Source of the DNA: a virus
DNA length: 64,000 bases
IMG/VR virus record: IMGVR_UViG_3300043081_000027
Strand: one strand, 5' to 3'
Part shown: positions 1 to 26,286 of the stretch, piece by piece
Position numbering within the stretch: position 1 is the first letter of the stretch
Layout: the number at the start of each line of letters is the position of its first letter
The notes under the pieces: generated by a model
What the model was told of the DNA's origin: nothing
Databases searched by the model: none
What the model saw: the letters and a program-made list of their open reading frames with translations, nothing else
Translations under genes and position numbers: made by a program

Positions 1-2718
1 ATGGCTACAGCAAATACAAGAATAAATAAAAAGAATGGTGCCGTTGTAGAAATTAAAGCAGGAAAACCATTTGTAATTGTTTCTGATGATACCAATTCTT
101 ATAATAATCAATTTACAACCCCTTAGTAGTGGATGGAAGCTTTGTATGATGAGAATGCAACTCATGTAACTGCTGTATACATTGAACCACCTTCTACGGA
201 CTTTGGTGGTTATATGCAATATCTTGTATAGTACTATGGCAATACAGCAACTACATCGGATCGTATTGGTACAGCTTCAACGTCTTATAGAATATTAAGA
301 GAATTAATTAAATCTACAGAAGGTAAGAAGTTTTTACGAGAGCGTTTTGAAAAATTGTACCAATATAAACAACCTACACAAGTTGATGAAGGCTTGGCAT
401 CTTTAGAAAAAGTTTTAGACCAGTTGGATAGCTTAGAGGGTAAAGTTACTAGTAGCAATGAAAACGCTGTAGTTGATTTACTAAAGTCTAGAGTAGTTGA
501 TGAATACGCTACTAAAGAATCTAGACCTAATTATATTACTAATATAGTTCGCTTGTATCCTAATACTACAATAGGAAGTTCTATTGATAGAGTATTGCGA
601 TTTGTAGTTTAGGGTTATTATCCAATTAATAAGGTTCCCGCTGATTTAGCTTTTGAAAAATTAAGTTCGGCTAATGCCCAGAATAATATAAAAACTATTG
701 ATGATTTAATTAAATAGGGATCTACTTATCGTAGAGGTATATTTAGAAAAGTTAGTTATATACAGGCAAATACTGGCGTTCAGTATAAGGATTTCCGAGA
801 AACTACATTGCCTATTAACGAGGCTTGGTTTAACGCAAGAATTGATACTGGTGCATGGAGAACAGTAGGTGATAGAGCTGTAGAATATCAATCCTAGAAA
901 GATGCTATGTTACTTGGAGTAGGTAGAGCTAAAAAGATTGATTATACTGACCACGAAATGTATGTAAAAGAAGATATGAAATCATTAGCTGATCCACCTA
1001 AAGTAGTTAAAAAGCAAACTTCAATTTCTACAGTAGATTTATTTAAAAGTTTTGATATTAAAGGTAAGGATACAATAGAGTCTTTATCTAAAAAGAGTCG
1101 CACTTATTTATTATAGAAATACATTGATACTAATTTATCTGGAGCTGGTATAACAGTTAATAACATTACTGCGGATAAGATAGATCCTGCTAAATTTAAA
1201 ACTATGTTTGATACAGCTTTAAACAATAAAGAAATATCTTATGTAGAAAATGGAACTATCTTAATTACTCCAGAGGATTTAAAACCAAATATTTTACGCA
1301 CTAGTGAGACATTTAAAGGTTTCTTTGAAATTACTCCGGGTGTGTTGGGTTGTACTATAGAAGATTCTGCGGGTAATGAAACTAAATATAGCTTAGCCTT
1401 TAATATTGAAATTAAAAATAATAAACATTGTATAAAAGATATTGCGAGTACGCTTTATACCCCAACTACTAATCCACCATCAACAGGATTAAATTGGAAT
1501 AGTGTTGATGATGTTCGTTAGGCTATCATTACGAAATATGGTGCAAATACTAAGGTTACGAATGAGACAGCCACTTAGTTATATGCAAGATATACTGCGG
1601 CTACTAATAATAGCGTATTAACGATAGACGATATAATTAATTCTACAGATGTATTGTATCAAAATCCTGACGGGTCTTAGGTATTATCTTCATTAGCAGA
1701 CGTAGTCCATAGTATTGAAGATAATGCTACTGATGATTACAAAAATGTTATGGACTATCTTAGAGATCCTTCTGGTAAGCTTTTTGGTTATGAGATAGCT
1801 TCTACTGATATTGGTAAACCTCACAAGTACTATCAAATTAATAAATACGATGTTGATGCTTCTGGAAATCTAATATTAGATACTAGTGAAACCACGTTAT
1901 AGGATTTTTATAATGCTATAAATGAAGCATAGAATTTCCTCCAAACTAATCATATAACTAAGTATTCGGATACTGTTATTAGTCACATTACAGGTCTGGC
2001 TGCAAAAAATTTTCATACCTCTGGTTTTAACTATAAATCTGAACTTGCTTTAGCTGTAGATTCTAGTGGTGAAAAATACTTAATATCTAAGTAGGATATT
2101 GTAGACAAAATGAATATATCAGACTTTGGGTTTACTGAAGATAATTTTGCAGAACTCGATTTAGCTAATCATACTTATAAAGATGAGGATGGTAATGTTA
2201 AAACATTTAATGGTGATTGGGTATTCACTCCTACAGGTGATGGTTCTTATAAGTTAGAAAATAAAACTATTAGTACTACTAAGACATTTATTGGTTTGGA
2301 TGGTGTTGAGGTTGATCTTGAAAATTTAACTCCGGAAAATAGTATAATTTTAGATTCATTTGACTCATTTGGGGAGGGGTCTTAGCTCTCAGCGGACTTA
2401 CAATTTCTCGGAATAACCAAGGGCTCTGGGCCTATCGCATTTAGTAACGACTTACTAGAAAGTATAGTTGCATCTATTAACGCGGCTAAACTTATTGATG
2501 TAAGTGATTCTATAAACAATGAGTTGAAATCTAAATTAAATTAGACTAAGTCTAATTTTGATAAACTTGTTAATAGGGCTAAGGGATTAAGCCCCACAGA
2601 TACATCAATGATTGCGATTCAAAATAGAATGAAAGAGTATATAAACTATTACAATTTTTTGAATGCTCTATTATATAAATTAGGGATAAACCCAGATGAA
2701 GGGACAAGATGTAATTAA
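1..2718 (+). CDS. Large late-module protein (C-terminal >=905 codons; virion/cargo-like), translated with TAG as a sense codon; 5' end at or upstream of nt 1
   Basis: Frame 1 is open from nt 1 to TAA at 2716-2718 apart from about 15 in-frame TAG (e.g. 124-129, 229, 610, 715, 895, 1114, 1519, 2383); no in-frame TAA/TGA. Track fragments 355..612, 907..1116, 1204..1521 and 2110..2385 are all in this frame. Confidence 0.6.
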
Positions 2719-2754
2719 CACTCTTTTACTAACATATTAAATTTTAAGTGATTT

Positions 2755-5700
2755 ATGGCATGTTCACTAGACATAAATGAAAAAGTTGATGCTTTTATAG
2801 AGATTTTAGAAAAATCAGAAGAGCCTGTAAAAAATGTACAGGCTCTTCTGACTACGTTTATTTAGAAAACATTTAGGACGGAAGAACTTAATCCTATTAA
2901 AGATGAAGTTATTAGGGAGTTTAATTTAAGTAAAAGATCGGATCAAATATCAGATTATAGAGATTTATTTGGTAATGATGCAGTAGCAAATGCTATGGAC
3001 TCTGTAAATGAGGAAATGGTTAATATTATTGTAGGAAAATATTTAAATCCAGAAGCCTATACTTAGGAAGATGATATTAAATCAAAAACAGATGAACTAG
3101 AGCATAGTTCAGAAAAGAAAGCTATCTTAAAAAATTCTAGTACATTTATCGATGATACTTATGGCGGACAATCATTAGCTAAAATGGATATGATGCAAAA
3201 GTTCCAATCTTTAATTGGAAATAGTACAATGTTCATGAAAGATTCTAATGGTGATGTCATAGAAATTGCTACTGGTAAATAGTTAAGCTAGAATTTATAT
3301 CGTTTACAACAAGAATTATATTCTGATATTATAAGAGATTTAAAAGAACTTCGAAAGGTAGATTTACCTGAAAATGTTTTTGATGGGTTTGAGTAGGTAA
3401 AAGCCATTATGGATCAATACTATAATTGGAATCCTACCATCATTAATAATTCTAGAAGCCGTAACACCGCTCTCTTCCAAAAAAGCTATAGAACTTTTAA
3501 TAACTACTTTATATTAAGTCATTTTGATCAACTTCTACAATCTCAATGTCCTGGACTTGTAGATATAGACCAAAGATATTTTGGATAGCTTCGACAAATA
3601 GCTGATGGTAAATATTTTGCCCATAATAAGAATGAAAATTTGGGAACTAGTTGGGGAGATGATACAGAATTATCTGATGGTGTTGGGGAGTTAAATCAAA
3701 GTATGAAAACCTTCTTAGGTAATCTTTGGTTATTTAGTAAGGATGGTACTAAAACTCGTTTACTCAAAGTACAAGAAATTGCAGATGCTTGGTGTGATTT
3801 AAAGAATCTTGTATTTCACCCAGAACTAAGATAGCTGGATGTTAATGGTAAAATAGTATGGGGATTTGCCAATACAACAGATGGTAGAAAGTTTATTAAA
3901 GAATATCTTACCGATTCTGCTGGAAACGTACTTACAGTACATGACTTAGTAACTGATATGGTAGATGATCCTACTAAATTAGACATGTTGCTTAAACTAG
4001 CTACATCTGATGTATTTGCAAAAAGAATGCAATTACCCATTACTAAACAGTTAATATATAAGTCTATGTACGCTTAGATGTGTGATATTAACTTAGGCGC
4101 TGGAATATATCCTTAGAAACTTGACCTAGATGGTAATGTCTATCAAGCATTTCATAATAGCAAGGGACGAAATATAATTACAATCAATGATAAAACTCCC
4201 GGATACTATAACCATCTACGTCAATTTTTAGATAATATTGAACGTATGAATATGAACCAATTACGTATGAAAGATACAGGTGAGTATGAAAATGTTCGAT
4301 TAAGTTAGGGAGCTAAAGACGCAAACACATTATAGTATATAGGTAATATAGCTGCTACATATTCTGCATTATTAGGAAGTAAGCATGGTTTATACAGTAA
4401 TGCAGAATCTGATTATTCTAATGAAATTAAATTAGGAACTATAACGATTGATCGTTCGGGATTATCACTGGAGAAACGTAGTGATAAGTATATTACCTTC
4501 ACAGATGGTAAAGTTACTTTTAAAGTTGGAAGTAACTTAAAGGTTTCTATTAAATAGAAAAATGGTAACTTTACTAACTTTTCAGATTAGTCAACTTTAG
4601 CTGATGCCCAATGGGACGTAATTAAAGAAATACTACAAATACAGGACTATCCTAAAGAAGCTTTTATAAACCAAAGCGCTTCTAATCTTATCACTGCAGA
4701 AACTTTGATAAGTCTTGCTGGAAATGTTATGTATAATTATGGAGTATCCAGTATATTACAAAATCGTAATGATCTTGATGATTTTAATATTGATGAGGAA
4801 GTAAAAGGATATTTTACTACTGAGGGTACTTATAAGTTAACTAAGGATAAGCAAGAATTACAACCATTTAATCCTAAAAATAATACCAAAATTAATAATC
4901 TAATGGATACCATTGACTAGCTCAATGGTAAGATTAGAGATGCTGTTACAAAAGGAGCTGATGGTAAGATGATTAATACTATTACTACATCATAGTTGGC
5001 TTCTAAAGCTACACAACAATGGCATCGTGATGCTAAACAATTGGGAGATGATTATGCTTGTAAAGATTTCTCTTTACATGATATATATAAAGGATTTGAA
5101 ATAGCTCGTGATGTAAAACAAAACCTTGATAGTAAGAAAGTAATTGAATTTAGTCCTGCTGAAAACTTTGCTTTTGGTTTTATTTCTGATTATGCAACTC
5201 CTATGAATGATACGGATAAAACTATTAGAGTCCTACCATTAATTATTTCAGATAAGGAGCGCATTCTTAAAATAAAACTAGATCTAAATAAAAAAGTTTA
5301 GTTTAAGAACTCTAAAGGATAGTCTGTAGAAGAACAACTTTGCAACCTAACTTAGGAAGATTTGTACGACTACATTAAATAGCAACTAGGAGGTTTTTAT
5401 GAGCATTAGTATAATCAAATAAAAGGGCGTTACGATAGATTAAAAAATTATGTCACCAATCCAGATGGTACTATTAATTTAGCACAATCTCAAACCTTTG
5501 CAAGTCAAACTGAAAATTAGGATTTAAGAGAAATGCTCATAATGTTAGATGGTAATGATACATCTGGTGTAAATTATAATACTCTATTTACTGAAAATGG
5601 TATTCTTAATTTTAAAGGAATTAATCAATTAATAGACTAGTTTATTTCAGACCACTCTGATGAAGCTCAAAATTTTGATATAGACGAAGAGGCTGTAAAG

Positions 5701-8700
5701 TTAGCAAGAAAATATGATTTAAATTATCCCACTACTTAGCTATTACTTAAAGGGGTTATTAATGAAATTAAATTAGAGGATGATACGACTTTAGAAAGAC
5801 AAAAGATTATAGACAAAATAATCAAAAGTCGTAATGATGATTTATAGGATCGAGCCATTGAAGCTGCTAAAAATCTAATTAAAGAATTACAATTAAGAGC
5901 GCAACTTAAAGGTGATTCAATTGATATTGTGGAAAATTCATTCTATAATATTGATAAAGGTCACTTTGTTCCTAATTATGGTTTAGTTGATCAACTATAC
6001 CGTTGGGGTAAAATTGATTAGGTTGCGGCAGAAAGTATGTTACCTACTGGATTACTGGCAACTTCACATAGTTATGGTGCAGAAGCTGGTAAAGAGCATT
6101 TGAAATTCTTTAAAGCTAAATCATTCCAAGTTGTATCTGATATACTTCAAGAAAATGGATATATCAACTTATTTGCACCTGATGGCAAAAGAATTCCTGG
6201 AGCATTACGTAAGTTAGGAAACAAGGAAATTGCGGGGACATTAGATGCGAAAAACGGTTTAGGAAAATGGTCACAAGGTGGAAAACTAGCTTTAGCAGCT
6301 ATTCGTTATAGAGAACTTTATGAAGGTGGTATTAAAGAGAAAGCACAACAAATTACAGACCTTAATCAATTAAGTGATATAGGACTTGTTTAGCAAGCTT
6401 TTAAATTTATTAAGTATCTTAATTCTTATAAGTACGGTGTTGTAACGGGACTTACGATAGACGAAGCGGCAAAAAGTATTAGTGATAACTATTCTACTAT
6501 GCGGGAATGCTATAGTTTAGATGATTATTTACGTAATCCTAAATTTAGTTTACTGACTTTAGAGAATGCTATTAATGACTACTTTAAATGGTAGGATATT
6601 GAACGTGGTATAGCTAATTACAATTCTGATAATGGGAATGTAGATATGTATGCTGAGGTTCGCAAAAATGTTTTCGAGAACGATAAAATAGAAATCGAGA
6701 AACAGTACAATAAGCGAATTGAGGATAGCAATACTAAATATGATAGTAATATTGCCAGCATAGATGAACAAATGGGGCTTATTACTAGTGTTGAAGAGTC
6801 TGAACGATCCGATGCTGAAAAAGAACGTCTTGTCGATTTAATTGCGGAAAAAGAGCAGTTAAAAGAAGCTAAAGCCGAAGCCGAAAAGAAATTAAAAGAA
6901 TCACTTAAAGAAACAATTACTAAAGTAACTGACCGTTATAACAAAGTATTAGAGCAAGTTCCTGCTTACATAAAAGCTGTTTAGGCAAATCCTAATTTTG
7001 CCCATACCGCTGAAATAGTAATTAATCCTGATTTGGAAAAGTATAATGCTTTTAGTTTTCTGTATGGTCAAGAATATACTATAGCTACAGTAGGAACGCA
7101 CTTAAACCATCCTGGTATGAAAAATAAGGATGATTTAAAAGCTTTTGAAAGTCTTTCTTGGGCACAGCAAGTAAAACGTAATGTATCTTTAACCGCTGCT
7201 AAACATTTATATTCTTTAAACTCTTTAAATGGTTTTGGAACTTATTGTAAAATTGCACAGATAGTTTCTGAATCTGATGCAGTTTATAATCTTACAGGAG
7301 CATAGGATGAAATGCTTAATGATGATGGTGCTAACTACACTAATGGTGTTACTCACCGTCTTGAAAATTATTCATTAGGTAGTGACGCTGTAGGAGTTGA
7401 TAAAAAGAACTTTTTCCACATGGAAGATGGTGCTTCTGGTACTGGATTTATTGGCAAGAATGCAACTTTCGTAGGTACGAATTTACGTATCAGAAACTCT
7501 AAGGCCTATAGATTATAGAATTTCCAAATGCTTCGAGGAGCTGTAGGTTACTTAAATCCTTACTTAACTAATGGTGGTTTAAATATTACAGAAAGCTTTG
7601 AAACTTATTACGATAGTAATACTAGAAAGTGGGAGTTCTCTAAAATGAACTACGAGGACTTTGATTATAAAATTCCCACGTCTTATAAGCCACATATTTA
7701 GTATGAAGTTTAGCTTGAGGATGGTTCTTGGACTGCAGCTAATGGGCTATTACAAGGTTATAATGTTCGTGTAATAGGAGATTCTATTAAATTTAAGGAT
7801 GGTTATACAACTTTTAAATTCTCTAATGTATCTTAGATTGATTCTACTGGAGAGGTTAAATCATTGCCTAATGCGGCAAGCTTTAATTTTAGAGTTAAAT
7901 TGGATAATGTACACGATATTTGGGAATTTTTTGGTGGTGCTTATTCTGGAAAAGCTAAAGAACAGGTTATAAATGGAGATTTGATATTAACAATGGATGA
8001 AAATAGTTATGATGAATCTTCATTTGATTTAACTACATGGGTTGTAAATAATGTAGGAAAACGAAGAGAAGGTGTTGGTATGGATGTTAAAGTAGAATCA
8101 CAAACGCAAGTAGACCAATACTTAAAAGATTCTATGATACATTATTTATCTTCCATTGAAACTATTAAATAGGGTTAGAATAAAATCAATAAGCGTTCTG
8201 ATATACGAAATGAAAACTATATTCCATTATTTATGGAAATGGATATGCACGATGCAGGAGTGCAATTAAATGCAGAACACCATTCCGATGATTCAGTTCT
8301 TTCCATGATGACTTAGGTTTTAAATGCCTTAGGAGCTAGAGGTTATACTTCTTAGGAAGCAGATAAAACTTATCAAGCTTTGCAAGGTCTTACTAATGCT
8401 GCATTGTAGGAATACATTGATTATTCAAGAGCTGGTGATTCGCCACAAAAACGTCAACACTTAGAGAATTTCATAGCACATATAATTGGTGATACTATTC
8501 AAGCTAATAGTACTTTAGATGAAGGTACTTTAGCTGGTGCTTTAATGCACCAAGCATAGAAGTTATTAAGTCGTAATAAGAACTTTAAATTTGAAGAAGT
8601 TCGTTAGTACTTACCTATTGATGATCCAGCCTTACTTAGAAATATGATTTCTAAATTAGCTTCTGGGTTAACAAAAAGATGTATTCGTGTTAAATTCCCA

Positions 8701-11700
8701 GGGTCTATGGATGTCATGTCCCCGTCAAACTCTATCTATAGATTATATGACGGTAAAATGTTATCCGAGTATAATGGAGATTTAACAGCTTTAACAGAAG
8801 CTGATAAAAAGGCTCCTATATTAAAACCCCATGAAATAAAAATAGACAGAGTATATCATATAGAAGGTTGTCCCGGAGCTGATAGTAGAGGTTATATAAA
8901 AATTAATTACCCTACCGATTACTGGCAAGTTCGTCGTTTCCTAGCAACTGCGGAAGGGCAAAAAGTAGAAGTCAGAGAAGTTCTTTCAGAAGGAAGAGAG
9001 CTTGCTTCGTTTGGTATAACTTTTGAAGCTATTGACGAAAATGGTCATAGGAATACTTATAATATGTGGGATTTAGCTACAGCTCGAGATATGTTTATTA
9101 AAGACAAGCTCGAATTGGAGAATGGAAATTCCGATTATAAGTAGAATCATGCACAAAGAATGCAAGATTTGCAAAATGCTTTATTTGCTTTAAGTGATAA
9201 TCCAAATGTTAAAACCACTTAGGTTATTGATTATGATGCTAATGGTAATGTAATCTATAAAACAGTACGTATTGCAAAGGAAACTGTTAAGAAACAACCT
9301 TATGAAATTATTATGTCTCAGCTTTATAAAACTACTTTTGGTTTAAGGGCTGGGGATTCTATAGGAAATATTATTAATGATAAGTTATTCTTCTTTAAGA
9401 GAGCTGTTGAGAATTGGGAGAATGATAAGAACAGACTTCCAGAAGAAGCTTATGATGTGCAACTAAAACAAATTAGTGGTAAGCACATTAATTTACTATA
9501 TGATACAGAGTCTAATAATCCTGATGGTTTTGAGGAGTTACAATTTGATCCTTATATTGATTAGCAAGGTACTATATGGCTTACTAACAATAAAGGTGAT
9601 AAAATAATGAAATTGTCTTCTAAAGATGATGTAGTTCTAAGTAATGGTTCTGGTGATATTATTATTAAAACCAAAGATTTAAAATGGTATTGTGATAATA
9701 GTAAATATGTAGACTTAACTATATCTTCTGGGCGTGATGAAAATACTCTACAAGAAATACTTGGTATATTAAGAGAATCTGATAGTAAGCAATTAAAGAG
9801 CCTGTTTAACCGTCTTGATACTTTATGGGAGTCAAGAGATAGGAAAGAAGCTTTTGAAGACAAAACTCCAGAAGAGCAAGCAGAAGAAAGGGCTAAATTT
9901 GACCATAAGTTTATATCTGTAGGACGTTATAATTTTGAAAGCACTAAAAAAGCTTTACATAACTTTTTAAATAATCGTTATATAGATGATGAAATAAAGT
10001 ATGAATTATTGGATTATGCTCTTAATAGTGATAAGGATACTTTTAATGAGGATAAGTTACGTGAAGATGTTGAATCTTACGGATTACGTGACAGTATTGC
10101 AGACCAACTTATTAAAATGCGTAAAGGTCATATAGGTTCTATCTTTAGAAATTCTAAATATATAGGAACATCTTTCCAAAAATCTTTGGAAGTACTTGCA
10201 GCTCGTATTCCCGCACAATGTATGCAATCCTTTATGTCTATGAAGGTTGCTGGATTTGATACTAGTGGTTTGAATACAGCTTATGTAAGCCGTTTCTAGA
10301 CTTGGTTACAAGGTTCTGACTACGATATAGACAAGGTTTCATTGCTTGGATTTAAATTTAGAAATGGGCACTTCATTACGTGGTCAAATTTCATGGATTT
10401 AACTTCTACAGCAACTCTTAAAGCTTCTGAAGAACTTTCTTATCCTACTAACCTAGCTGCAGAGGTTCTTGAAAATGATGCTATTAATAAAACAAGCCTA
10501 AATGAGGATGCTCTTGAAAATGTTAGACTTGATACTAGTATTGATAAAGAAAACCGAGAAGGGGTTAGAACTTTATATGTTCAAGTAGGAGCAGAAGAAG
10601 TACCTTTATTAGAAGTACGTGATGCCTTTAAATAGAATAAAATTAAAGAGTTTACTGATACTTATAATGATATTAAATCTGAATATGACGATATAAGTAT
10701 AGAGAAGGGTGATGCAGAAGCAAAAACTTACTTAAAAAGTAAATATAAAGAAGTACTTGGTTAGGAAGCAGGTCGAAAATAGGTTAAAACTCTACTTAAA
10801 GAGTTAGAAGACCATTATAAGTTCGTAGGGCAAAAGGAATAGGTAAAAGAAAATAAAAAAGCTGGAATTTTCACAATAAATCCTATAGCAGATGCTGAAA
10901 CTCTTGCTAATTACGAAACTCAAATTCAAAGAGTTGTTTATGGAGTTATCCCAACTGGTGGTGTAGTATCTATAAATGGTGCTGATAGTACAGTTATTAA
11001 TGATATGTTAGTAAAGTATGGCTTTTCTCTTAACCAAAACGTACTAACATAGACTGGTGAGAATGTTTCTGTAGCTAAAGACTTCTATGATTATATTACA
11101 CGTGAGGATTAGATTGCAGGAATTCCTGTCAGTGAGAATTTGGATTCTAGAATTATTATTAAAAATGAATCTGGTTACACCCTTAACTACTATCCTGGAG
11201 AATTTGCGGATGAGAAAGTACAAGTTGCTAAAATTAAAGCCCTTGCTAAATTTATTGATGCTGTAAATAAATTTGGTGGTATTCCTAAACTATCTATTAC
11301 GGAAGATTTAGACGAAGAAACTAAAGAAGCTTATGAGGAACATAATAATGCTTTATAGCAATTGATGGATGAAATCAATGAGCATAACTTGTATTTAAAA
11401 GATGGCAAAGACTATAGTCAAGATGCTCTTTTAAACTTCGTATCTTCTAATATGTATAATGTGGGCACAAACCCTAGTAACCTTATCTAGGGTACACAAT
11501 CCGTAGATGCTAAAGATGGTTCTGTAAATAGAATTAAAAAATTAGCTAACGAGGGCGACTACAAAACTAAGCTTAAACGCTATGATCCAGGTTCTATTAC
11601 TAGCTTATGGAATATGGAAGCTTTAACTATTGGTGGTAAAAAGAATACTGGTATTGTTGCTGCCAATCTAAAAGTATTTGAAGGATTAACTCAATATACT

Positions 11701-14520
11701 AACATGCTTCTTAATGAGGGTACTCATGAAGAGTTACAAGACTTGCTTGCACATCGTAATATTGCTGGAAAGGATATTCATTTACTTGCAAATGTTTACC
11801 AGCAGAATAAACATAATTTCACTACTCGTGAAATTTAGGAAGCTCTTGATGCTGTTGACCAAACTCTCGATGCTTACTTGGAATATTCTGGATTCTTGTC
11901 ATTGTCTACCGACAATGCTAAAGACCCTACACTTGCCAAAATTAACGCTGGTGAGAAATTATTAGGTTTATACTTATGTGGTGTAGCAGTAGGTATTGAT
12001 GTTCCCAGCTTAGTTAAAATATTAACATCTAAAGCAGCCGCAGAATCTGTAAAATTATTAACTAGTAATATGTTTAATAATGCACAAGGATTCTTTGATG
12101 TTAATGCTTTAGATCGGTATCTAGCATCTGGCCCAATTTAGGTGGTAGATGAGTTTAATGTTAGTATGCTTAACTAGCCAGTTCTTAAAGCATGGATAAT
12201 AAGTGTTTGGAATAGAGAACACAAAAAGGCAGATTCCCAATTAAGTGCTAGTAGTAAAATAGGTAGAAAACACCTTTCTCATGCCATACAAAAGGATGGA
12301 TGGCAAAAGTTTAATGACGCTTTAGTAGATTCTCTTAAAAATATTACAAAGGAAGTACATAAAGGTGATGATGCTTTAGAGGTAGCTGAATAGTTAGAAA
12401 ATGGTAATCAAAATAATGATTCATCAGAAGTAAAGGAAGAGAGTGCAACTACTGAAAAAGCAAAAGAGAATCTTTGGGCTGTTTACAATCTTCTGAAAAA
12501 GGTTCAAACTTAGGTAAGAGATTTTGCTAAATCCTAGGAAACTATTAAAGATTGTTGGGTATAGTTACCTAATGGTAGATGGGTTCAAGCTTGGAGTCAA
12601 ATTAGACGTTTAAATTAGGTAGCAAATGAATTTAAAAGATTCTCTCAAGTAGCTAAATTAAATTAGCAACTTCCTAATGCTATGGATGAGCAACTTGCTT
12701 GGATTCGTAAATTTGAAAAAGGTATTGCATCACGAATTTCTGAAATAAGTAAGTAGGAGTTGGACAATCACCCCGAAATGTAGCAAGCTATAGACGAATT
12801 AGAATAGCTAAATAAAGAGTTATATGCTTAGATGATGCAATAGGGAATACTTTCAGGAGAATAGTTTGACCGTTTGAAATATTCCGTAAGTTTGAGTAAA
12901 TTTGTAAATGATGCAGAATACCAAAAAAAGATATGTAGTATCTATGGTAAGTTAAAGTATGTTGTAAATGTTTATGATGCAATGGCTAAACTTCCACATT
13001 ACTTAGGATATGCTAGAACTCTTGCAGCACTTAGTGAAACTATGGGAGAAACATCTAAAATATACCAAACTGTAAATTACATTTCTCAAAATGTTATAAA
13101 GAGTCTTGGTGATGAATAGCATCGTAAGAAAGAACTTACTCGTTTAATAGACTGGGTTAATGATTGTCTTACTAATGATTTCTTGTTAAATCGAGGAACT
13201 AATCTTACAATTAAGTCTGGATCTAAGTATTATGAAAAAAGTTATGGTCTTACTACTGGTATAGACCCTACTTTAAAAACAGTTGGTGAGGGTGCTACTT
13301 CCACCATACAATTAGGAACTTTGGAAGGCAATATGTCATTTAAATATATAATGGAAAATGAAGTATTGCCGGATTTAAAAGAGAAGTATCCTGCATTTGA
13401 TTTAATAAGAGACTTAAATCAAATTAAGTTTGATAAAACTAATGATAGAAATACATTAGTAAAAATGGCAACTAAGTCTACTATGCTTCCTAGATCTGAA
13501 CAAGAAATACAAACTTTAGCTAAGTACAAGGAAGATCTCATAACTTTATCTAATATTAGGTTATCTCAATTTAACGGAGAAATTAATTTAGTAGATGCTT
13601 TATTTGCTTACAATTTAATTGTAAATAAAGGTAAGGTATCTGGAAATTCTCTTACTAATTTGTTTGAGGATTATGCAATGAGTTAGGGTAAGTAGTAGAC
13701 TGATGGGTAGCCTTCTGCTTTTATAGAAGATTATTATAATTCAAGACGAGTTCCAAACGAAAGCTTACTTGAAGAATTAGCATTTTCTGATAACTAGGTA
13801 CAGAACTTCTTAATGGCTACAGCATAGTATGATCCTACTTATAAATCTAAAGCAGAGTATATCTACATACGAAATCCTTTTACTAGATAGTATGTACTAG
13901 CTCAGAAAATAAACAAAGAGGAGATTAGAGCGCAATACACTGATGAGGATTTAGGTGTAGAAGATTACGGAATTGATGATGTTGCCGAAGATTATATTAA
14001 TGAGGATTATTCTGATTATGATGACGATGATTACGAAGGTTCAGACTCATCAAATTATAAGAATCAGCGTGCTTGGGAGGCAGGAGTTGAAGTATAGGGT
14101 TATAAAATACTTGGAGTTTCTTCTACTGTGGACGCTTTTAATAATTTTGCAACAGCAATTTATGGAAAGTAGGAAGTCGAAAAAGTCTTTGATAATATAG
14201 AAATTAGTGAGGATGGTAAATAGATAAAATCTATTACTTATAAGTCTGGTGATGATCCAGACGCTCGCACTCTTACGTATGATGATTTATTTGAAGGTAC
14301 TTCGGATATAAGATCTGAAAGACGTAAAGCCTTAGAAAAGGAATTAGGAATCAAAGCAAAAGATACTCCAGAATCTAAGCTAGAAAAAGTACTTATTAAT
14401 TTTGGTTTAGTAACTAAAGATGCTGATGGTAACATACAACTAGTTTAGAATACTAATGCAAACCCTACAGTAACTTTAGGAGATGTTATAAAAATGATTA
14501 AAACAGGTAAACCATGCTAA
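2755..14520 (+). CDS. Giant virion-type RNA polymerase (about 3921 codons), TAG read as sense (probably Gln)
   Basis: ATG at 2755 in frame 1; every frame-1 track fragment from 3640 to 13686 and onward to TAA at 14518-14520 is in the same frame. In the stretches traced codon by codon (2755-4920, 12121-12900, 13681-14520) only TAG occurs in-frame. Contains the RNAP beta-prime-like DPBB catalytic signature AARIPAQCMQSF...QGSDYDIDKVS (nt about 10200-10335; compare beta-prime NRQPSLHRMSIQAF...NADFDGDQMAVH and the QDE-1/phi14:2 gp66-type DYDGD motif). Confidence 0.7.
10204..10335 (+). other. Catalytic double-psi beta-barrel motif of the giant RNAP (RIPAQCMQSF ... DYDID metal-binding aspartate triad)
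   Basis: Read directly from the frame-1 translation; DYDID is encoded at 10318-10332, just after an in-frame TAG at 10297-10299. Confidence 0.6.
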
Positions 14521-14521
14521 T

Positions 14522-15607
14522 ATGGCAGGATGTATGAATAAAAATGATAGAGGATACCAGTCGTTAAGTAGAATGGCTGGTATCCCTTCTATGGTATTAG
14601 ACGTTTATTGTCAAAAGTATTTAGATTCATTTAATAGATTACCTAACTTAGATGAATTACCCCTTGTGGATTCATCTAAGCATTTAAATGAATCTTTAAA
14701 AACAAAATAGATTGGAGATTCAAGTTTTGCTAGTAATGAAGCTATACAAAAAACTACAGGAGCACAGTCCTTAGGAGAAGCGCAAGTAAAGCTTAATAAT
14801 ACGTATAGAGATTTACAAGTAAACTTAGTGGAAGTTACAGATAAATCATCTTTACTTGAAGTATAGCATAGACCTAGTGTATTTAAAGAACTTAATCAAG
14901 AATATACAGGGGAAAATTTTGATGTTCAATCTGATACTGACAAACGTGTAGTTCTGCGAAATATGCTTGGTAAACTAAAAGATTTTTATGGCATTAAAAT
15001 TAATGAAGTTACGTCTAAACAATTATGTGAAGGTGACTTTGCTAATATAATACCAGATGCTAAAACCGCTAAAGCCTTTATTTATAATAACGAAATATAT
15101 ATAAATACGGATATTGCAGATATAGATGCACCTATACATGAATTAATGCACATATTTTTAGGTGGTATGCGCTATACTAATCCGACTATATATTTTAATT
15201 TAGTGTCTAAAGCATAGCAGTTTAAGAATTTACAAAGTCTAAGTAAGGTATATCAAGATAGAACTCAATCTGATTTTTTAGAAGAAGCTTTTGTTTCAGA
15301 GTTTTCTAAGCTTTGCGCTGGTATGCACAGTGAATTTGATTCTTGGTCTGCTGAGGATCTTAACCCGTTATTATATGAAGTCCGTAGAAATATGGACTCA
15401 GCTTTAATGGGTAATAAAAGTGTTAATAGTATTGATCCTAATGAACTTTTTAAAGCAAGTTTCTTAGATATTGCTATGCGCACAAAATCTCCTGAATTAA
15501 ATAGAAGCGATTTTAGTATTCTAAATCTCGCTGAATTACATAGACAGAATGCGAATATTAAATCTAAGATGCTAAAAGATGGTGACTTAGTTGAAAAATG
15601 TGATTAA
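14522..15607 (+). CDS. HExxH-motif protein (putative zinc metallopeptidase), 361 codons, TAG-recoded
   Basis: Frame 2; track fragments 14522..14710, 14963..15217 and 15323..15607 are joined by in-frame TAG; ends with TAA. Motif APIHELMHIFLGG at about 15137-15151. Starts 1 nt after the TAA of the RNAP gene (TAAtATG). Confidence 0.5.
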
Positions 15608-15609
15608 GT

Positions 15610-18600
15610 ATGGCTTGTAAATTTATATATAAAGGCAATAGAGTTTTTAATTCTGAAATTGCACTTGATGAGTTTCTTATTAATAGTAAGAAGTATTAGG
15701 AAGGTTCTGATATTGTATTTGAGTTAAGTACAATTTAGAAACAGCGGGGTGCTAGAATTAAACAACGTGGTAAGGCAGCTGATAAGTTAATTACTCATAA
15801 TCCTGTAATATTTGATACAGATTTATTCGAGGATTATGAAATGAATGAGTTCGGTTCTGATAACTATGGCGTTACATTCGCTCTTAAATAGTATGTAGAT
15901 GCGGAAGGTCACCCACTTTTTCCTATATTTAATCTGGAAAACTACTGGCAACATAAAATGCCAGACTGGTAGAAACAAGAATATTGGACTAAAGGTTATT
16001 AGGATGATACAGGTGAAGTACATAAATGTGATAAGTACGAGTATCAAGCTGTTTGGGGAGATAAAGATCCTAATGATATTACAGCAGCTCCTACTAATGA
16101 CTAGTTGGAAGTTGGTAAAAAAGTAATGGAGAGAGTTTGGCCTATGCAAGGTTTTATGGGTACTGGTGTACATAGAATGATTGCAGCTTATTGGAAATGC
16201 TAGACAGCTCATAAAGGTAGGGCTAGTGCTACACAAGTTAAAGCAGAAATGACCAAAGCTCTAGATTTTCAATTAATAGGAAGTGGTAATAACAATCCTT
16301 TATTATCAGAATTTAAAGGCATTAAATACTCAGATTTTCTTTCTGATAAAGTAGATGATACTTACTCAAAATGTAGAGCTATTCACGATGAACTTAATTC
16401 AAAGTTTTTAACAGATGAGTAGCGTAAATCTGGTATGGAATTGTATTTCTTACCTGAAACCGCCATTACTACAGAAGTTGATGACTTTGAACATCCCGAT
16501 AAGAAGAGAAACTTATTGGGTAATGTAGACTTATTTGTAATTGATCCGTCTGGTAACATTCACATTATTGACTACAAAACTTCACCTAAAGAATATAATG
16601 AGTACAACTCAGCTAAAATTAGAACATTCTACTATTAGTTAGCTACCTATAGACGTTTGACAGAGCGTATGGGTTTTGCATTAGACCATAATTCTAATGT
16701 GTATGTAATACCTATTAAGTTTGAAAACTTCTAGATTGATCCAGAACAAACTGATGTTACAAAGCTTTGTAAATTTGATAATCTTAAATTACGTGAGGGA
16801 AGTTCTGGTATTTTAGAGCGTTTGGAAGTTAAGGCAAGTCTTAGTTCTACAGGTGTAAACTCCGATACTATTAATAGTAACTTGGATAAAATCATTCCTA
16901 TTAAGAATACTAAAATCATGGCTGATGGTGATATTCTGGATGATGTTAAAACTTAGATGAAAGCCTGGTTTCCAAGTTTCGGTAAGTACAATGAAATTAC
17001 TAAAGAGTATGTTGTCAAGATGCTTAAACGTAAAGGTCGTGATAAGATAAATCCGAACAGTTTGAAATATACTTATAAGGTTGGTAAGAAAACTGTAATT
17101 ACTGATAGCTTTGAAGCTCTTGTAGATGGGGTATACTAGGAATATTAGAAGATGGAAGAACACGTTATGGATAGAACTTAGGGTGTTAAAACCATCTTAC
17201 AAGAAGCTATAAATAATAAGGAAAATGTAGTCATTGATACAGGATATGCTCATAGCTCTCGTAAATTTGCAAGAGAAAGTTATCTAGAAAATTTGTTAAA
17301 CCCTTATACTACTGGAGAATATGAAATCCTTGATGATTATAATGAAGCCACAGAACGTCTTGGAATAATATTACTTAAAAATATACATACCAATAAAATT
17401 GATGTATTAGTAGTAGATACTAGTAAACATGCTTTTGATGATGAAATAGCACTAGGTGGTACTGAGAATAGTCCAGGACGTAATAAGACTTTAACAGGAA
17501 CTTTTATTTCTGATGTTACTGCAAGAAATAAACCTAATGAGCTAGTACTTGATAGTACTTATGGTAATATTAGAATGATGGAAGTTATGTAGGCTTTAAA
17601 TAATATGTCTGCTTTATTTAATAGTGATTCCGCAGGAATGGAATCTACATTAGGAGAGATTAAAATGTTTAATCAATTTCATAATGATGGTTGGACAGCT
17701 TCTAATGAACAACTTCTTTACAACTTTAAAGAATTACATAAGGCTAATAAAACAGAAGACTAGATTCATTTAGGTAAGGATATAAAAATGTGTAGTTAGC
17801 TCGATCTTATTAAGCATAGGTGTAATGAGATTATGGCAAATCCAGAACATGATAGAAAATGGAATGGTATTCAAACTGCTATAGATAATACACAAAACTT
17901 TACAGTTAATCCTATTATACTTAAATCTCAGCTAATCGGATTAGCACATGACATTGAAGAGAAATTTAAGTTAAAGAATGATACTAATGCTAGAAACTTG
18001 GAAGGTGATAAAGCAGAAGCATATAGTTTCTTAGCAAACTTATATTCTGCTATTGCAGAAATTGATGGTATTCATTTTAAATAGCAAATTAAAGACCATT
18101 CTGCTTTCTTAAATTAGTCTGGTGTAAAAAGAATTTTCAAAGAGGGTTGGTCTGGAAATAGTCTTGATAATCCAGGAATGCTTGATTCTGACACCCTTAA
18201 TAAGATGGGTCAACGTCTTAATGAAGCCTACTAGCTGACTCGTGACGAGATCCAAAATATTTCAAAGAAGATTTATACATTGAGTAAAAAATTGAAGGAG
18301 GAAAACAACTTCGGATATTTGAAATCTCGAACTATCGGAAATGAAGCATCTATTTACAAAAATTTATATGATGATACTTATGAAGATGATTTAGTATTTA
18401 AAAACCCATTTGATTCTCACGGAGTAACATTGTCTGAAACTGAAAAGGAGTTTTTAAAGCAATCATTGCTTTTAATCAATCATAATCGTTATGGAGATGT
18501 AAATACTATGGATGACCTAGAATTAGCTATTATGCAGGATCCATATAAATATCTCCGAGTACCATTAACTGAGGGTACTAATGCTTCTAAAGTTGCATAT

Positions 18601-20574
18601 AAAGGTATGTGGGAAACCATTAAGGAGAAGTTTAAAAACCTTATCCCTACAAAACTTAATATGCAAAGAATGTTTAAAGGTTTGCTGGTGGATGAAACTT
18701 TATTGGATAACGAGGATGTTCGTAATAAGTATCAAAATAAGGATGCGGAACTTTGGGAAATGAATACTGCATTTGATGCTGGTGAAACTGAATAGGCTAG
18801 AAAATCCATGTTAGCTAATTATGGTAAGAATTATTTTGAGCATAATCTAGAATTACTTACCATGAAACATGCTTATGCTTATACATTAAAGAATAATATT
18901 AATAAAATATTTCCACTATTTAAAGCATGTGCTTTACAACTAGAAATGGGTGGTGCTATAATGAATACTCGTTTCGCAGAAGACATTTAGTACTTACATG
19001 ACTTTATTACTAATAAAGTACTTAATATGTCTATCTAGGATCCTAAATGGAGAACTGCTTAGTACGTATGTGGTAACTTAATGTCTGGAGCTTCTAAACT
19101 AGCATTAGCTTTTAACCCAAAACAATTTTATCAAGCTATTGATGGTTTATGGAAAGATATTTCTTTAGTGATAAGACAAAATGAATACGATCAAGCTTTC
19201 AGTCAGTAGAATATGAAAGATTCTTTCTGGTGGGTTTACAGAGATTTAACCCATAATTGGGGTGACGGTAAATCATTGGCTTAGGTTCTTAATGAATAGT
19301 ATGGTATTAATGATATGGATATGAATTCCTACATTGATAAAACTAAACCTAATCAATTTGGTATCTTTAATTTGGATAATGTAATGTTCCATTTCGCGTC
19401 ACGTCCAGACTTCTATAATAGAATGACTATTTTTGGAGCTCAGATGAGACATGATGGTTGCTTTGAAGCACACGACGAAGACGGTACATATCATTGGGAA
19501 AAAGACTTGCGCTATAATATCTATGCTAAATATTGTAAGGATGAAAGTGCTGTCCCAGCTTCTTTAAAAGCTGAATATAATAAGCAGAAAGCTCGTTATA
19601 AAGCTGCGGCTACACAATTTCAAGCAGAGGGTGCTAAATTTAAGAATTCTGATGGTGAAATGGAGGATTTTGTTGTAGACCTCTCTAATCCAAAGCCATT
19701 ACCTAGAGCGTACACAGTTAAAGAAGCTGAAAGTATTAAATCTTTAGCAGATTTAATTTATGGATATTATTCTCATGAAAAGAAATCTATGATTCAATCA
19801 ACGACTGCTGGAGCTTTATTTATGCAAATGAATACATTCTGGTCTTCTAAGAAAAACTAGTGGTTTTTACCAGGAGGAGTACGTATGTAGGGTACATATG
19901 AACATTATTCTGAAACTTAGGAAGATGGAACTAAAAAGTATTATTACCAAGATGAGAATGGTAATATTACAGATTAGGAAACGGATACACCATTCATGGT
20001 TTGGAAGGGTCGTTATTAGGAAGGAATCATGGTAACATTAGCTAATATTTTTAATGATACTTTCTATGGTGATGAAACTGGTAAGAAAGGCTTAGGTAAT
20101 GCTATTGATAAGTATTGGAACGCAACTGATGAAAACCTTCGTAATGCTTATAGAAATAATTTAAAGTAGTTACTATATGATTTATTAATGTTTCTATTCT
20201 TAGGAATGCTTATTGCACCTGCTTTAGAGAATGCTGCGAAAGCTCATGCTAAAGAAGTGGGTAATGGTGACTTAGGTGATGCTATGATAAATAATGCTAC
20301 GGTGAATTTAACTTCTATGTTATCTACATCTACAGATGATTTTAACGCACTTAAATCTATTTTTGGTAGAGGTGTACAATGGACACCATTCTCTATATCT
20401 ACACTTACAAACTCTTATTAGAGAGTAAGTTCAGCTGTATCAGGTAATAGTGATTGGTATGATGCTATTGTTAAAATGTCCGCAGCAGGAAGAACATAGG
20501 AGAATATGTTTGATTACATAAAAATAAATACACTCGGTCGAAAGATTGGAGACAATGGAGTAGTAAAAGAGGAT
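15610..20574 (+). CDS. Large late protein (1654 codons) with an internal RecB-family (Cas4-like) PD-(D/E)xK nuclease domain, TAG-recoded
   Basis: Frame 1 from ATG at 15610 to TGA at 20572-20574, only TAG in-frame where traced (15610 to about 17830 codon by codon; beyond that only the 3' end of each track fragment was checked). Nuclease motifs GNVDLFVIDPSGNIHIIDYKTS followed by FYY[TAG]LATY give the family signature QhxxY only if TAG=Q (nt about 16440-16700). A hydrophobic segment lies near the C-terminus. Confidence 0.6.
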
Positions 20575-20581
20575 TGAAAAA

Positions 20582-20627
20582 AAAATGGGCGACAACTTAG
20601 GAAAAATCCTAAGCTGCCGCCCATTTT
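20582..20627. terminator. Bidirectional intrinsic terminator at the convergence of the late (+) and early (-) modules
   Basis: Inverted repeat aaaatgggcgacaacttagg / cctaagctgccgcccatttt with a 6-nt loop. Its two mismatches are A/C on the + transcript but become G-U wobbles on the - transcript, where the hairpin is followed by nine U; the + strand has tttt after the stem. Confidence 0.55.
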
Positions 20628-20638
20628 AATATTTAAAA

Positions 20639-21256
20639 TTACGTTAACAAGTCAAAGTTGTTAATCAAGTCATTTCTTAATAGAAATTTATCTAATTTAG
20701 AAATGCTTGCATTTAATTCTGTTGCTTTTACAGAAAGATCCTCTAAAGAACCATCATTTTTTACAATAAATGAAAAACCTTTATAATCATCTAATTCAGT
20801 TTCACTTGTATGTTTTTGCTCACTCTCGGAACCGTCTGAAAAATCGCGATTAACCCGGATTACAAGCCCACCAGCCGATTCAATTCCTTCGACCTCACTC
20901 TTGTACCTTACGTCAGAAATAAAGGCTATATCAGGCTGCTGTGAAGCAATTTCTCCAAACAGCCTTTTAACCCAAAAATTAGTTCCAAAAGTTTCTCTAA
21001 ATGCTGTTCCAACCTTTTGTAACAACACTCGATTAGTAGCGTCCCAAAAAAGATTAAAAGACTTTTTAAATTCTCTACTATCGAATAAACTAGGCTCCAC
21101 TCCAAAAGCTTCGCCCGCAATGTTCTTTAAGACTCTAGCAAAACTATACTTCTTACATATTATTTCAGGGTGAGTCACTGAAAAGGTTCCTATTAACATA
21201 TCAGCAAGAGTATCCTTACCTGCATTCATTTTTCCAGAAATACCTATAATCAACAT
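20639..21256 (-). CDS. Deoxynucleoside monophosphate kinase (T4 Dnk/gp1-like)
   Basis: P-loop GISGKMNAGKDTLAD and C-terminal NDGSLEDL resemble T4 Dnk (SGVKRSGKDTTAD ... NDGSLEEL). Confidence 0.65.
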   Translation of the reverse strand: MLIIGISGKMNAGKDTLADMLIGTFSVTHPEIICKKYSFARVLKNIAGEAFGVEPSLFDSREFKKSFNLFWDATNRVLLQKVGTAFRETFGTNFWVKRLFGEIASQQPDIAFISDVRYKSEVEGIESAGGLVIRVNRDFSDGSESEQKHTSETELDDYKGFSFIVKNDGSLEDLSVKATELNASISKLDKFLLRNDLINNFDLLT

Positions 21257-21495
21257 TTAATTTCCATTTTCTGTTGTAAAGCTATATTATCTCCGATACT
21301 TTGAGGTTTTATATCTTTAAATGATTGAGGATTGAGATTCCAATCTGGCGTTTCTGTAGGTAAAGAATAACCAGCATCCTGAATATCTATAATCAAGTCA
21401 ACTGCTTCTAAAGCAGCCTCTTTATTTCCTTCAAAGAGGATAGTACTAAGCAATTCCCTAACCTTAGCAATTACTTCTTTTTTAGTAAATAACAT
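21250..21495 (-). CDS. hypothetical protein
   Basis: Uninterrupted ORF in the operon. Confidence 0.4.
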   Translation of the reverse strand: MLFTKKEVIAKVRELLSTILFEGNKEAALEAVDLIIDIQDAGYSLPTETPDWNLNPQSFKDIKPQSIGDNIALQQKMEIKC

Positions 21496-21497
21496 AA

Positions 21498-21680
21498 TTA
21501 AAATGAGTCTATATCAGTTATATCATAATCTTTATCTTCATCCACAGAAGCTGTAGTAACAGCTCCTACCCCAGGTAGCAATTTATCGGATACAGTAATA
21601 CCTTTATCAGGAAACTGCCTATGAAGCTTAATAATTGCATCCAATTGTGCTACCGTTAAATAAATTTTACTTTCCATCAA
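21498..21680 (-). CDS. hypothetical protein
   Basis: ORF in the operon. Confidence 0.35.
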   Translation of the reverse strand: MMESKIYLTVAQLDAIIKLHRQFPDKGITVSDKLLPGVGAVTTASVDEDKDYDITDIDSF

Positions 21681-22071
21681 TTAATTCACCTAGTTTTTTA
21701 CATACATAATTAAGCATAGTTTCATCAGTAAGTCTGTTGATAGCACTGTCATTATCAACAACTTCTTGGAGGATGTCTTCAATACCTTTAATTATTTCTT
21801 TTAAGTTTGGTTCATCTACAAAAGATTCTTTATAATTAACCTTTTGACTAAAATCCCCAATTATTCTTTTTAAGTCAGATATACCATCAATCGACCAGTG
21901 ACCTCCTTCTGGCAAACTTATTCTTATAAAAGGAGATACTCCGTTATTTTCAGTTTCTAATTGAATGGTTTGCCAATTATCATCATCCTCACAGCAATCC
22001 CCCGGTTGGGTATATTGAGCTATTACTTTTTCAACCTCTACACCTTCATACTTATTCTGAAAATCAATCAT
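21667..22071 (-). CDS. hypothetical protein
   Basis: ORF, tight overlap with the downstream gene. Confidence 0.4.
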   Translation of the reverse strand: MIDFQNKYEGVEVEKVIAQYTQPGDCCEDDDNWQTIQLETENNGVSPFIRISLPEGGHWSIDGISDLKRIIGDFSQKVNYKESFVDEPNLKEIIKGIEDILQEVVDNDSAINRLTDETMLNYVCKKLGELIDGK

Positions 22072-22307
22072 ATTCTTAAATTATTTTATGTTTTTGTAAC
22101 CATGAAACTCTTGCAAAGTAAGCTTTGTTACCATACTCACTTTGTAATATTGAACTATCTATAAAGAAACAATTCTCCAAGAAACCTTCTTTAGTCATTA
22201 ATATTCCTTTTGGGTCATTAACAGGAACAAATAGATCGCAATTATTCAAATTCATTTTTCGTCTTATTAGATTATTGTAGTAGTATAAAGAATATTTATC
22301 TAAAACC

Positions 22308-22958
22308 TCAACATTCGTGCCAAGCTCTTAAGAAATCTTCTCTAGATATTCTTTCCACGTGTCCTAGATAATCCCGTACACTACATATATTATTTATAGT
22401 GAGTTGTTCAAATTCGGGAGTAATAACTTTCACCAATCGTTCGTATTCTTTGCAATCGTAATCAAACTTTTGAATATAAAGTCTATACTTTTCAAACTTT
22501 GGTAAATAGGGTAAAGTGATTGGAAAGTTTTCATCTAACCAATCCAAGAAAATTAAGTTTACAGATTCTTCTGTTTCAGATACTGTATTTATACCAATAG
22601 CTCTTTTAAAATCTTTATATACCGTAGTACCATCCTCGCAGTTACATTTAATTATGGGATAATCTCTATTGCAGGGAGTTTCAAATATTACACCATCTAT
22701 ATTGGATTTGACTTTAAGATCATCATAAAAGTCTTCTGCTGTAATAGGACTTAATGGTAAATGCAGTAAGAGTCGCCGGAATATATTAGCCATTCTAACT
22801 TTTGTAAAACTAGAAGGGCCGATTATAAAGTTATCGGTTAGTTCTTCATACGCGTTTAAAACCATTTTATAAATATCTTCTGCATGTACATCAGCTGTTT
22901 TATTATATGTAATAGCTTTAATTACCTCTAATTCTGCCCATTGCTTATTAGTATCCAT
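22308..22958 (-). CDS. hypothetical protein
   Basis: 216-aa ORF. Confidence 0.45.
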   Translation of the reverse strand: MDTNKQWAELEVIKAITYNKTADVHAEDIYKMVLNAYEELTDNFIIGPSSFTKVRMANIFRRLLLHLPLSPITAEDFYDDLKVKSNIDGVIFETPCNRDYPIIKCNCEDGTTVYKDFKRAIGINTVSETEESVNLIFLDWLDENFPITLPYLPKFEKYRLYIQKFDYDCKEYERLVKVITPEFEQLTINNICSVRDYLGHVERISREDFLRAWHEC

Positions 22959-23520: not shown

Positions 23521-23812
23521 AATAAAACTAATATTGTAGCTAAAGTTACTGTAGACTGGAGATATTCTCCTTTATATATACTATACAGAAGATCTCCAGT
23601 CATAAGTAAAGCCACAACTATATATCCAGATAAAAGTCCTATCATACTAAGAATTTAGCTAGAATACATTCCAAGCATCCCCAGAATACAACTCCCCAAT
23701 TTATAAATAAGAATAATACTAAAATTGCACTATCTCTAATAGATAATATTAGCATTGCTGCAGTGCCTAATAGTATTGACATTATTATAAGTGCTACAAA
23801 TACCATAGTCTT

Positions 23813-24687: not shown

Positions 24688-24815
24688 GGTTATTAAAAAC
24701 TATTTTATCCATAAATTCTTTTTGTTGTTTGATGGTTTCTTTTAAATCTTTTATTGTAGTATCTTGTTTAACCATAGGATTTATTAATTGTTCCAAATGG
24801 TAAATAATTTCCGGA

Positions 24816-26285: not shown

Positions 26286-26286
26286 A

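Follow-up and report, generated by a model that had tools for sequence, protein, structure and literature searches.

How are the first 20 kb of the viral genome fragment IMGVR_UViG_3300043081_000027 (IMG/VR), analyzed here over its whole length of 64,000 nucleotides (hereafter, the window), translated? In the public gene calls for this phage, the region is fragmented by standard gene callers into open reading frames (ORFs) of 30-230 amino acids (aa). The original prediction, made from the sequence alone, held that the plus strand instead carries late genes in which TAG is a sense codon, probably for glutamine (Gln), next to minus-strand early genes compatible with the standard code. Our results indicate that the plus-strand block very probably forms the distal part of the late (virion) genes in a divergent crAss-like phage using genetic code 15, that it adjoins a replication module in the standard code, and that a code switch of the published kind is likely.

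When only TAA and TGA are counted as stops, the plus strand of region 1..21000 contains uninterrupted stretches in frame 1 (1-2718, 2752-14520 and 15604-20577) and in frame 2 (14498-15607), with no comparable stretch in the remaining plus-strand frame. These stretches correspond to four genes, denoted g1 to g4, and the block that they form ends at a hairpin:

1..2718, plus strand: 3' part of g1, the last 905 codons of an ORF of ~3,290 codons, with 15 in-frame TAG codons and a TAA stop at 2716-2718
2755..14520, plus strand: g2, ATG start, 3,921 aa, 79 in-frame TAG codons, TAA stop
14522..15607, plus strand: g3, ATG start, 361 aa, 3 in-frame TAG codons
15610..20577, plus strand: g4, ATG start, 1,655 aa, 35 in-frame TAG codons, TGA stop at 20575-20577
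20582..20627, between the convergent modules: hairpin of 20 bp, called as a terminator, which separates the recoded block from the minus-strand module

The four ORFs comprise 6,842 codons with 132 in-frame TAG codons (1 per 52) and not a single in-frame TAA or TGA, against ~434 expected from base composition (P ~1e-195; log10 P ~ -195). TAG is first encountered at codon 37 in g2, codon 63 in g3 and codon 30 in g4, and no TAG-free run in the recoded genes exceeds 244 codons. TAA or TGA is found on the recoded block solely at the four gene ends. The prediction that TAG is the only in-frame stop inside these genes therefore stands over their full length. Three of the proposed gene ends (2718, 14520 and 15607) are also correct, the fourth being displaced from 20574 to the TGA at 20575-20577. 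Likewise, the tight spacing of 1-2 nucleotides (nt) holds for the g2/g3 (TAAtATG) and g3/g4 (TAAgtATG) junctions but not for g1 and g2, which are 36 nt apart. What had been read as a gene within 1..2718 is only the tail of g1. Its start lies 7.15 kb upstream of the window, as seen in JGI contig L009, which comes from another sample and is 99.99% identical over 11.5 kb, and another TAG-rich ORF precedes g1 in this upstream region. Exact copies of the window proteins are found on 8-12 independent contigs (JGI and Logan). Given these copies and the near-identity of L009, the recoded sequence is not an assembly artefact.

The identity of the amino acid encoded by TAG was assessed from homologues of the recoded genes, which are contiguous proteins of equal length. 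When g4 was searched against a database, 13 full-length homologues were obtained (30-54% identity), and Gln accounts for 151/458 of their residues in the 35 TAG columns. This tabulation is partly circular, because at least two of the large-database proteins, P0005 (locus L027) and P0010 (L028), are themselves code-15 translations with TAG already written as Q. The test was thus redone only with relatives verified to use the standard code, namely, L008 (ENA k141_378231) and L029 (ENA k113_55392). Both were checked at the DNA level and lack in-frame TAG, and genes neighbouring the homologue in L008 terminate at TAG. Gln occupies 16/34 (L008) and 15/34 (L029) of the g4 TAG columns, with a background of ~4%; the corresponding counts for columns in which the window has CAA or CAG are 13/36 and 15-16/37. 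When g2, g3 and g4 are pooled, Gln is found in 24/92 and 22/83 of the TAG columns (26-27% versus 4% background; binomial P 3e-13 for L008 and 9e-13 for L029) and in 40/140 and 38/123 of the CAA/CAG columns (29-31%). In well-aligned columns the two kinds of codon are closely similar, with Gln at 20/42 and 20/37 of the TAG positions (48-54%) versus 34/73 and 31/63 of the CAA/CAG positions (47-49%).

Other measures point in the same direction. Ranking of the 20 amino acids by BLOSUM62 score at the g4 TAG columns, a procedure whose control identified each of the 20 amino acids correctly, places Q first (2.28), followed by E (1.16) and K (0.69). Six of the g4 TAG columns correspond to Gln residues invariant across the homologues. 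One of them is in the QhxxY motif of the nuclease domain, where the original prediction had placed TAG at the conserved Q (FYY[TAG]LATY, nt 16636); the position is exact, and this Gln is invariant in all homologues, including three verified standard-code ones:

16636..16638, plus strand: TAG as the Gln codon of the QhxxY motif, g4 codon 343 (YY[Q=TAG]LATY, codons 341-347)

The Gln content of the recoded genes is 4.8% with TAG counted and 2.9% without it, versus 4.1% in a standard-code relative, so that TAG would make up ~40% of the Gln codons. Judged from these alignments, the assignment of TAG to Gln in the plus-strand block, as originally proposed, is strongly supported.

What the giant recoded genes encode is less obvious from database searches. 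None of the g1-g4 proteins matched a PHROG family, and neither g1-g3 nor two g2 homologues matched a family in Pfam. The order g2-g3-g4 is kept in every relative retrieved. The g2 protein is homologous to the split RNA polymerase (RNAP)-like ORFs of scaffold MT835470 and to a single such ORF in MT835492, and its homologues are 3,180-3,490 aa long. It contains a short motif:

10318..10332, plus strand: DxDxD motif (DYDID) in g2, resembling at the motif level the double-psi beta-barrel of the beta' subunit

The surrounding block, ARIPAQxMQSFMxMK...(Y/F/W)Qx(W/Y)LQGSD(Y/F)DIDK, is invariant in 9/9 homologues that encode the motif uninterrupted, and g2 itself carries ...ARIPAQCMQSFMSMK...LQGSDYDIDK. 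Its arrangement, R-x-P ... S ... xxD(F/Y)DxD, is the one found in the catalytic double-psi beta-barrel in RNAP beta'; in the crAss-like transcription block, the counterpart of the motif is the 'RNApB' DxDxD' marker (PMC7886860). In MT835470 (L002, 12880..13960), which uses the standard code, an intron-like LAGLIDADG endonuclease insert of ~1 kb splits the RNAP-like gene exactly between LQGSDY and DIDK; disruption of the same kind in RNAP genes was described by Yutin for Zeta-group crAss-like phages (PMC7886860). A phmmer search with g2 against PDB sequences produced no match to the solved crAss virion RNAP, and a profile of nine g2 sequences had no match among PDB sequences either and only six unnamed fragments in a database of 5.8 billion proteins. 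The AlphaFold model of the DxDxD region of a g2 homologue was poor (predicted local distance difference test score of 62, <50 near the motif), and Foldseek against PDB returned nothing below E 0.09. Since sequence, profile and fold searches all failed, the assignment of g2 as a candidate crAss-type virion RNAP subunit is based on motif, synteny and the literature.

The g3 protein contains an HExxH motif (HELMH) at residue 206, which is conserved in 7/7 homologues; in MT835470 and MT835492, the HExxH region is the C-terminal part of proteins of ~800 aa. The motif suggests that the giant virion proteins include a metallopeptidase of the zincin-like kind. The N-terminal region of g4 (residues 183-360, nt 16156-16689) matches the PD-(D/E)xK nuclease domain PF12705 with 30.4 bits (cut-off 22), and the match, obtained with TAG read as Q, spans three TAG codons. 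Going by these predicted features, the recoded block is a 'transcription block' of the crAss type, with a DxDxD giant, a zincin-motif protein and a nuclease-headed giant.

The minus strand is organized differently with respect to TAG. The features that matter here are the following:

20639..63467, minus strand: replication and nucleotide-metabolism module, readable in the standard code, with PHROG and Pfam matches
39113..40492, minus strand: Dda-like helicase with a TAG stop; the next gene begins 2 nt later
51195..52220, minus strand: homing endonuclease of 341 aa with 11 in-frame TAG codons, the sole recoded gene within this module

Genes of this module encode deoxynucleoside monophosphate kinase, ThyX, PolA, RNA ligase, DNA ligase, the Dda-like helicase, NrdD/NrdG, exonucleases, primase, DnaB, an SNF2-type helicase, a sigma-70-family factor, dUTPase and a Band_7 protein. 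Across the 47 minus-strand ORFs of >=100 aa (11,463 codons) there is no internal TAG. Five of 61 minus-strand ORFs terminate with TAG at normal gene junctions, indicating that TAG serves as a stop in this module. Without internal TAG and with only an occasional TAG stop, the replication module is translatable by an unmodified host ribosome. The claim that early genes end exclusively in TAA or TGA thus applies to the genes named in the original prediction and does not extend to these five. Similarly, the proposed split between a standard-compatible early and an incompatible late module is real, with the homing endonuclease as an exception. When read with Gln, the latter matches phrog_559 (E 1e-65) in a single contiguous alignment over residues 1-314, through the TAG codons, one of which lies in the motif IEYNGI[TAG]HY. 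Its product contains triple 'NKYDYSK...CPxHGEF...GCxKC' repeats and a Vsr-like C-terminal domain. A second homing endonuclease, of the GIY-YIG type and with 4 in-frame TAG codons, is located just beyond the window, in the transfer RNA (tRNA) array (~L007 520..1155).

Not all endonuclease genes of this phage are recoded. A group I intron (RF00028, 70 bits; 35038..35323, minus strand) overlaps an HNH endonuclease ORF (35009..36031, minus strand; phrog_1271), which has no in-frame TAG, unlike the other endonucleases; candidate exons around the intron are at 34023..34469 and 36078..36422. The intron/HNH region contains a 148-bp nucleotide match to crAss-like cr1_1, annotated as 'intron-encoded HNH endonuclease'. 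The sigma-70-family factor is complete (Pfam regions 1.2, 2, 3 and 4), standing beside the putative virion RNAP, and is conserved in relatives (L027 23227..24081 and L029 20716..21576).

The phage belongs to a poorly described lineage. At the nucleotide level, the only match of the window among 50,697 phage records is the 148 bp in the intron/HNH region, and at the protein level g2 and g4 match nothing but unannotated 'Bacteriophage sp.' scaffolds. MT835470, which is distant and syntenic, has a portal, a major head protein and TerL, and among the same phage records its portal matches crAss-like portals only. The components of the crAss-type replication block (DnaG primase, DnaB and SNF2 helicases, family A or B DNA polymerase) are all represented by PHROG matches. 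The likeness to recoded crAss-like phages noted in the original prediction is apt, in agreement with the literature.

Both codes occur among the relatives. TAG-recoded ones include L027 and L013 (53% g4 identity), L028 (35%), MT837483 (32%) and MT835492 (20%), and standard-code ones include L008 (55%), L029 (52%) and MT835470 (24%). TAG sites common to the window and its recoded relatives are no more frequent than by chance (for L027, 2 versus 2.4 expected over common Gln columns); the near-identical pair L027 and L013 has 20 of 21-24 TAG sites in common. Since the closest relatives (~50-55% identity) use both codes and TAG sites are not shared with recoded relatives beyond chance, the picture fits the published view that code switching is frequent and rapid. 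The helicase family is represented by at least 270 IMG/VR loci on contigs of up to 225 kb. One relative, L019, whose helicase is 44% identical, carries in its tRNA array a tRNA with a UCA anticodon of the opal-suppressor type (1250..1321), suggesting that TGA recoding also occurs in this clade. In the TAG-rich relative L014 (IMGVR_UViG_3300047159_000010; 1..13200), TAA/TGA or frameshifts additionally cut the homologous giant genes, leaving pieces of 300-1,050 aa, which could represent introns, endonuclease inserts or assembly errors.

What decodes UAG was sought in ~77 kb of the ~140 kb genome, comprising the window, 8.8 kb upstream and 4.6 kb downstream. ARAGORN and Rfam revealed no tRNA in the window itself. 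Starting ~480 nt past its right end, on the minus strand, is an array with tRNAs for Gln(UUG), Glu, Asn, Ala and Met(CAT):

L007 350..4145, minus strand: tRNA array (L007 position x equals window position 63467+5159-x)

Directly 3' of tRNA-Met there is a candidate hepatitis delta virus (HDV)-like ribozyme (L007 424..488; RF02682, 28.5 bits, below the gathering threshold of 44, E 0.024). HDV-like 'theta' ribozymes next to tRNAs have been described in recoded gut phages, where they often accompany tRNA-Met or suppressor tRNAs (PMC10879173). Candidates reported by ARAGORN with relaxed thresholds or with introns allowed lie inside coding regions and are obvious false positives, and a tRNA-like T-arm at L007 ~240-270 turned out to be a terminator hairpin following a 25-codon ORF. 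In the same array region, the minus-strand ORF at L007 3510..4034, outside the window, is an intact standard-code gene for a phage lysozyme (PF00959).

The neighbourhood of the helicase gene was sampled in 79 IMG/VR relatives, of which L046 alone has a tRNA(CUA). The L046 helicase is 53% identical, and the tRNA(CUA) is ~6 kb upstream of the helicase gene, which is the side of the tRNA array in our phage; its acceptor end (U1:A72, G2:C71, A73) is the same as that of the tRNA-Gln of our phage. All public contigs with the right-hand genes end within 5.2 kb, inside the tRNA array. Exact 40-mers of both flanks are absent from viral_contigs and metagenome_contigs, and a protein-guided scan of metagenome_contigs was also empty. 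Because the contigs end in the array and ~62 kb of the genome is unread, we infer the decoding agent: UAG is most probably decoded by the known suppressor-tRNA code switch.

According to this model, code 15 would operate in 1..20577, with UAG read as Gln and UAA and UGA alone terminating. Early in infection, the standard-code genes would be expressed along with the tRNA array just outside the window, as in the published code-switch model, and translation of each recoded gene would abort within the first 12-63 codons. After the switch, an amber-suppressing tRNA of the Gln type would outcompete release factor 1 (RF1), allowing the giant virion proteins to be completed. The recoded homing endonuclease of the early module would be completed at the same point.

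Several other explanations deserve consideration. Taken at face value, the 30-230 aa ORFs of standard gene callers could mean that the TAG codons are true stops and that the block consists of decaying pseudogenes, many small ORFs or sequencing artefacts. Decay would have introduced TAA and TGA too, instead of none where hundreds are expected, and the fragments share one frame, mostly lack start codons of their own and jointly match single long homologues, in a sequence identical across independent assemblies. With TAA/TGA absent and homology collinear, this explanation is refuted, and we assign it a practically negligible probability. It is also highly improbable that TAG specifies another amino acid, such as Glu, Lys, Tyr, Trp, Leu or Ser, whose codons are single-base neighbours of TAG. 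Support for this alternative comes from g2, which is also a point against our own assignment: on its own, g2 gives a weak Gln signal in poorly aligned columns (7/55), and many of its TAG columns align with K, D or N. The g2 scores of Q, E and K are close, with Q only marginally ahead against all homologues (0.33 versus 0.29 and -0.14) and tied with K against L008. The weakness of the signal is attributable to the ~39% identity of g2 to its standard-code homologues, many TAG codons being in poorly aligned segments. By contrast, in g4 the score of Q is about twice that of E, and the six invariant Gln columns, including QhxxY, leave little room for another residue. Moreover, TAG columns behave quantitatively like CAA/CAG columns, and only with TAG read as Gln does the Gln content reach the level of standard-code relatives.

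Other difficulties for a phage-encoded code switch concern the decoder and the timing, and here the alternatives share some of the evidence. The suppressor tRNA(CUA) anticipated in the original prediction did not turn up in the window or in the 13 kb of flanking sequence, and the window contains no release-factor or aminoacyl-tRNA-synthetase gene according to Pfam and PHROG. The whole 121-kb scaffold of MT835492, the distant TAG-recoded relative, also lacks tRNA(CUA). In addition, the early versus late timing is deduced from gene content and literature, and the lysozyme gene beyond the window is not recoded, in contrast to the pattern stressed for other recoded phages, so that the published model finds no support here in its 'lysis timing' aspect. 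That the 77 kb examined yielded neither a phage suppressor tRNA nor a release factor or synthetase would be accounted for if the host itself read TAG as sense and the phage simply matched its host, with no code switch during infection. There is only a very slight chance of this, since TAG at the late-gene rate of 1.9% would then be expected in the early codons, where it is absent, TAG closes five minus-strand ORFs at ordinary junctions, and relatives at ~55% identity are standard-code phages with TAG as a stop; the literature in which this was tested contains no report of a code-15 bacterium. Alternatively, UAG could be decoded without a phage tRNA(CUA), by a host suppressor or by near-cognate reading with tRNA-Gln(UUG), which the phage encodes, combined with a block of RF1. 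This is unlikely, even if the negative searches are consistent with it and surveys detect amber suppressors in just 40% of TAG-recoded phage genomes. About 45% of the genome is unread, all contigs end inside the tRNA array, and in clade member L046 a tRNA(CUA) resembling tRNA-Gln does precede the helicase gene. Furthermore, 79 TAG codons in one ORF require near-complete suppression. Near-cognate reading is not known to provide it. In a broader version, the whole lineage including MT835492 would read UAG as Gln without a phage tRNA(CUA), with an RF1-neutralising factor acting alongside tRNA-Gln(UUG) or a re-modified host tRNA; this seems quite unlikely, and if true it would amount to a suppressor-independent code switch efficient enough for 79 UAG codons in a single ORF. 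A phage-driven, suppressor-tRNA code switch thus remains our preferred explanation.

For annotation, the practical consequence is that translation table 15 is needed; otherwise 20 kb of the window and at least 8.8 kb upstream fall into meaningless fragments. In biological terms, the window adds a divergent lineage of ~140 kb genomes related to crAss-like phages. The identity of the UAG decoder is a gap already raised in the literature, and our analysis opens no new question in this respect.

TAG-to-Gln recoding has reportedly been treated by Ivanova in 2014, among the reports tied to recoded crAss-like phages. In crAss-like phages, late genes with TAG as Gln have been described, as have codes that change over short distances and correlate imperfectly with suppressor tRNAs (PMC7886860), and code 15 was proven by proteomics (Peters 2022, PMC9523058). 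Our phage resembles these code-15 crAss-like phages (PMC7886860; bioRxiv 10.1101/2021.08.26.457843; PMC9523058) in having TAG at Gln positions in the late/virion module and replication genes in the standard code, in being AT-rich and from the gut, in the interleaving of recoded and standard-code relatives, and in that the suppressor tRNA is sometimes undetectable. It differs in that its proteins are too diverged for PHROG or PDB matches and that there is no deposited nucleotide match. Unlike the classical crAss phages, with genomes of ~100 kb, it has an estimated genome of ~140 kb and no suppressor tRNA in the ~77 kb read.

Other TAG-recoded gut phages were compared as well. Both phAss-1/Phassvirus (PMC10607447) and Lak phages read TAG as Gln, have tRNA arrays and are of ~136 kb (phAss-1) or larger (Lak); they nevertheless represent different lineages. 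phAss-1 is a siphovirus-like phage that has a tape-measure protein and carries three tRNA(CUA) genes. Its similar size and its TAG recoding made phAss-1/Phassvirus a candidate, which was rejected for want of detectable homology to g2 or g4. A parallel for the recoded endonuclease is found in Agate phages, where a recoded homing endonuclease in a group I intron is part of the early module (Borges 2021, bioRxiv 10.1101/2021.08.26.457843). In our phage, too, a heavily recoded homing endonuclease (51195..52220) is located within an otherwise standard-code early module, which would delay its production until the switch. However, the recoded codon is TGA in Agate phages and TAG here, and the intron-associated HNH gene of the window (35009..36031) is not recoded.

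Our phage also resembles the Zeta group (Yutin 2021), or the proposed Echekviridae described by Babkin 2025 (PMC12386605). Common features include a large genome, PolA, NrdD, ThyX and ligases, a tRNA block that opens the replication module, and many introns and homing endonucleases, with the RNAP gene of one relative interrupted exactly in DxDxD. TAG, TGA and standard codes alternate among the relatives in both cases, and the best matches among cultured phages include Bacteroides phage DAC16. The Zeta likeness is one of gene content, the TerL, major capsid protein (MCP) and portal genes of this phage lying outside the window. Every element of the system has been published before; what is specific to the window is the poorly described, divergent lineage in which these elements come together.

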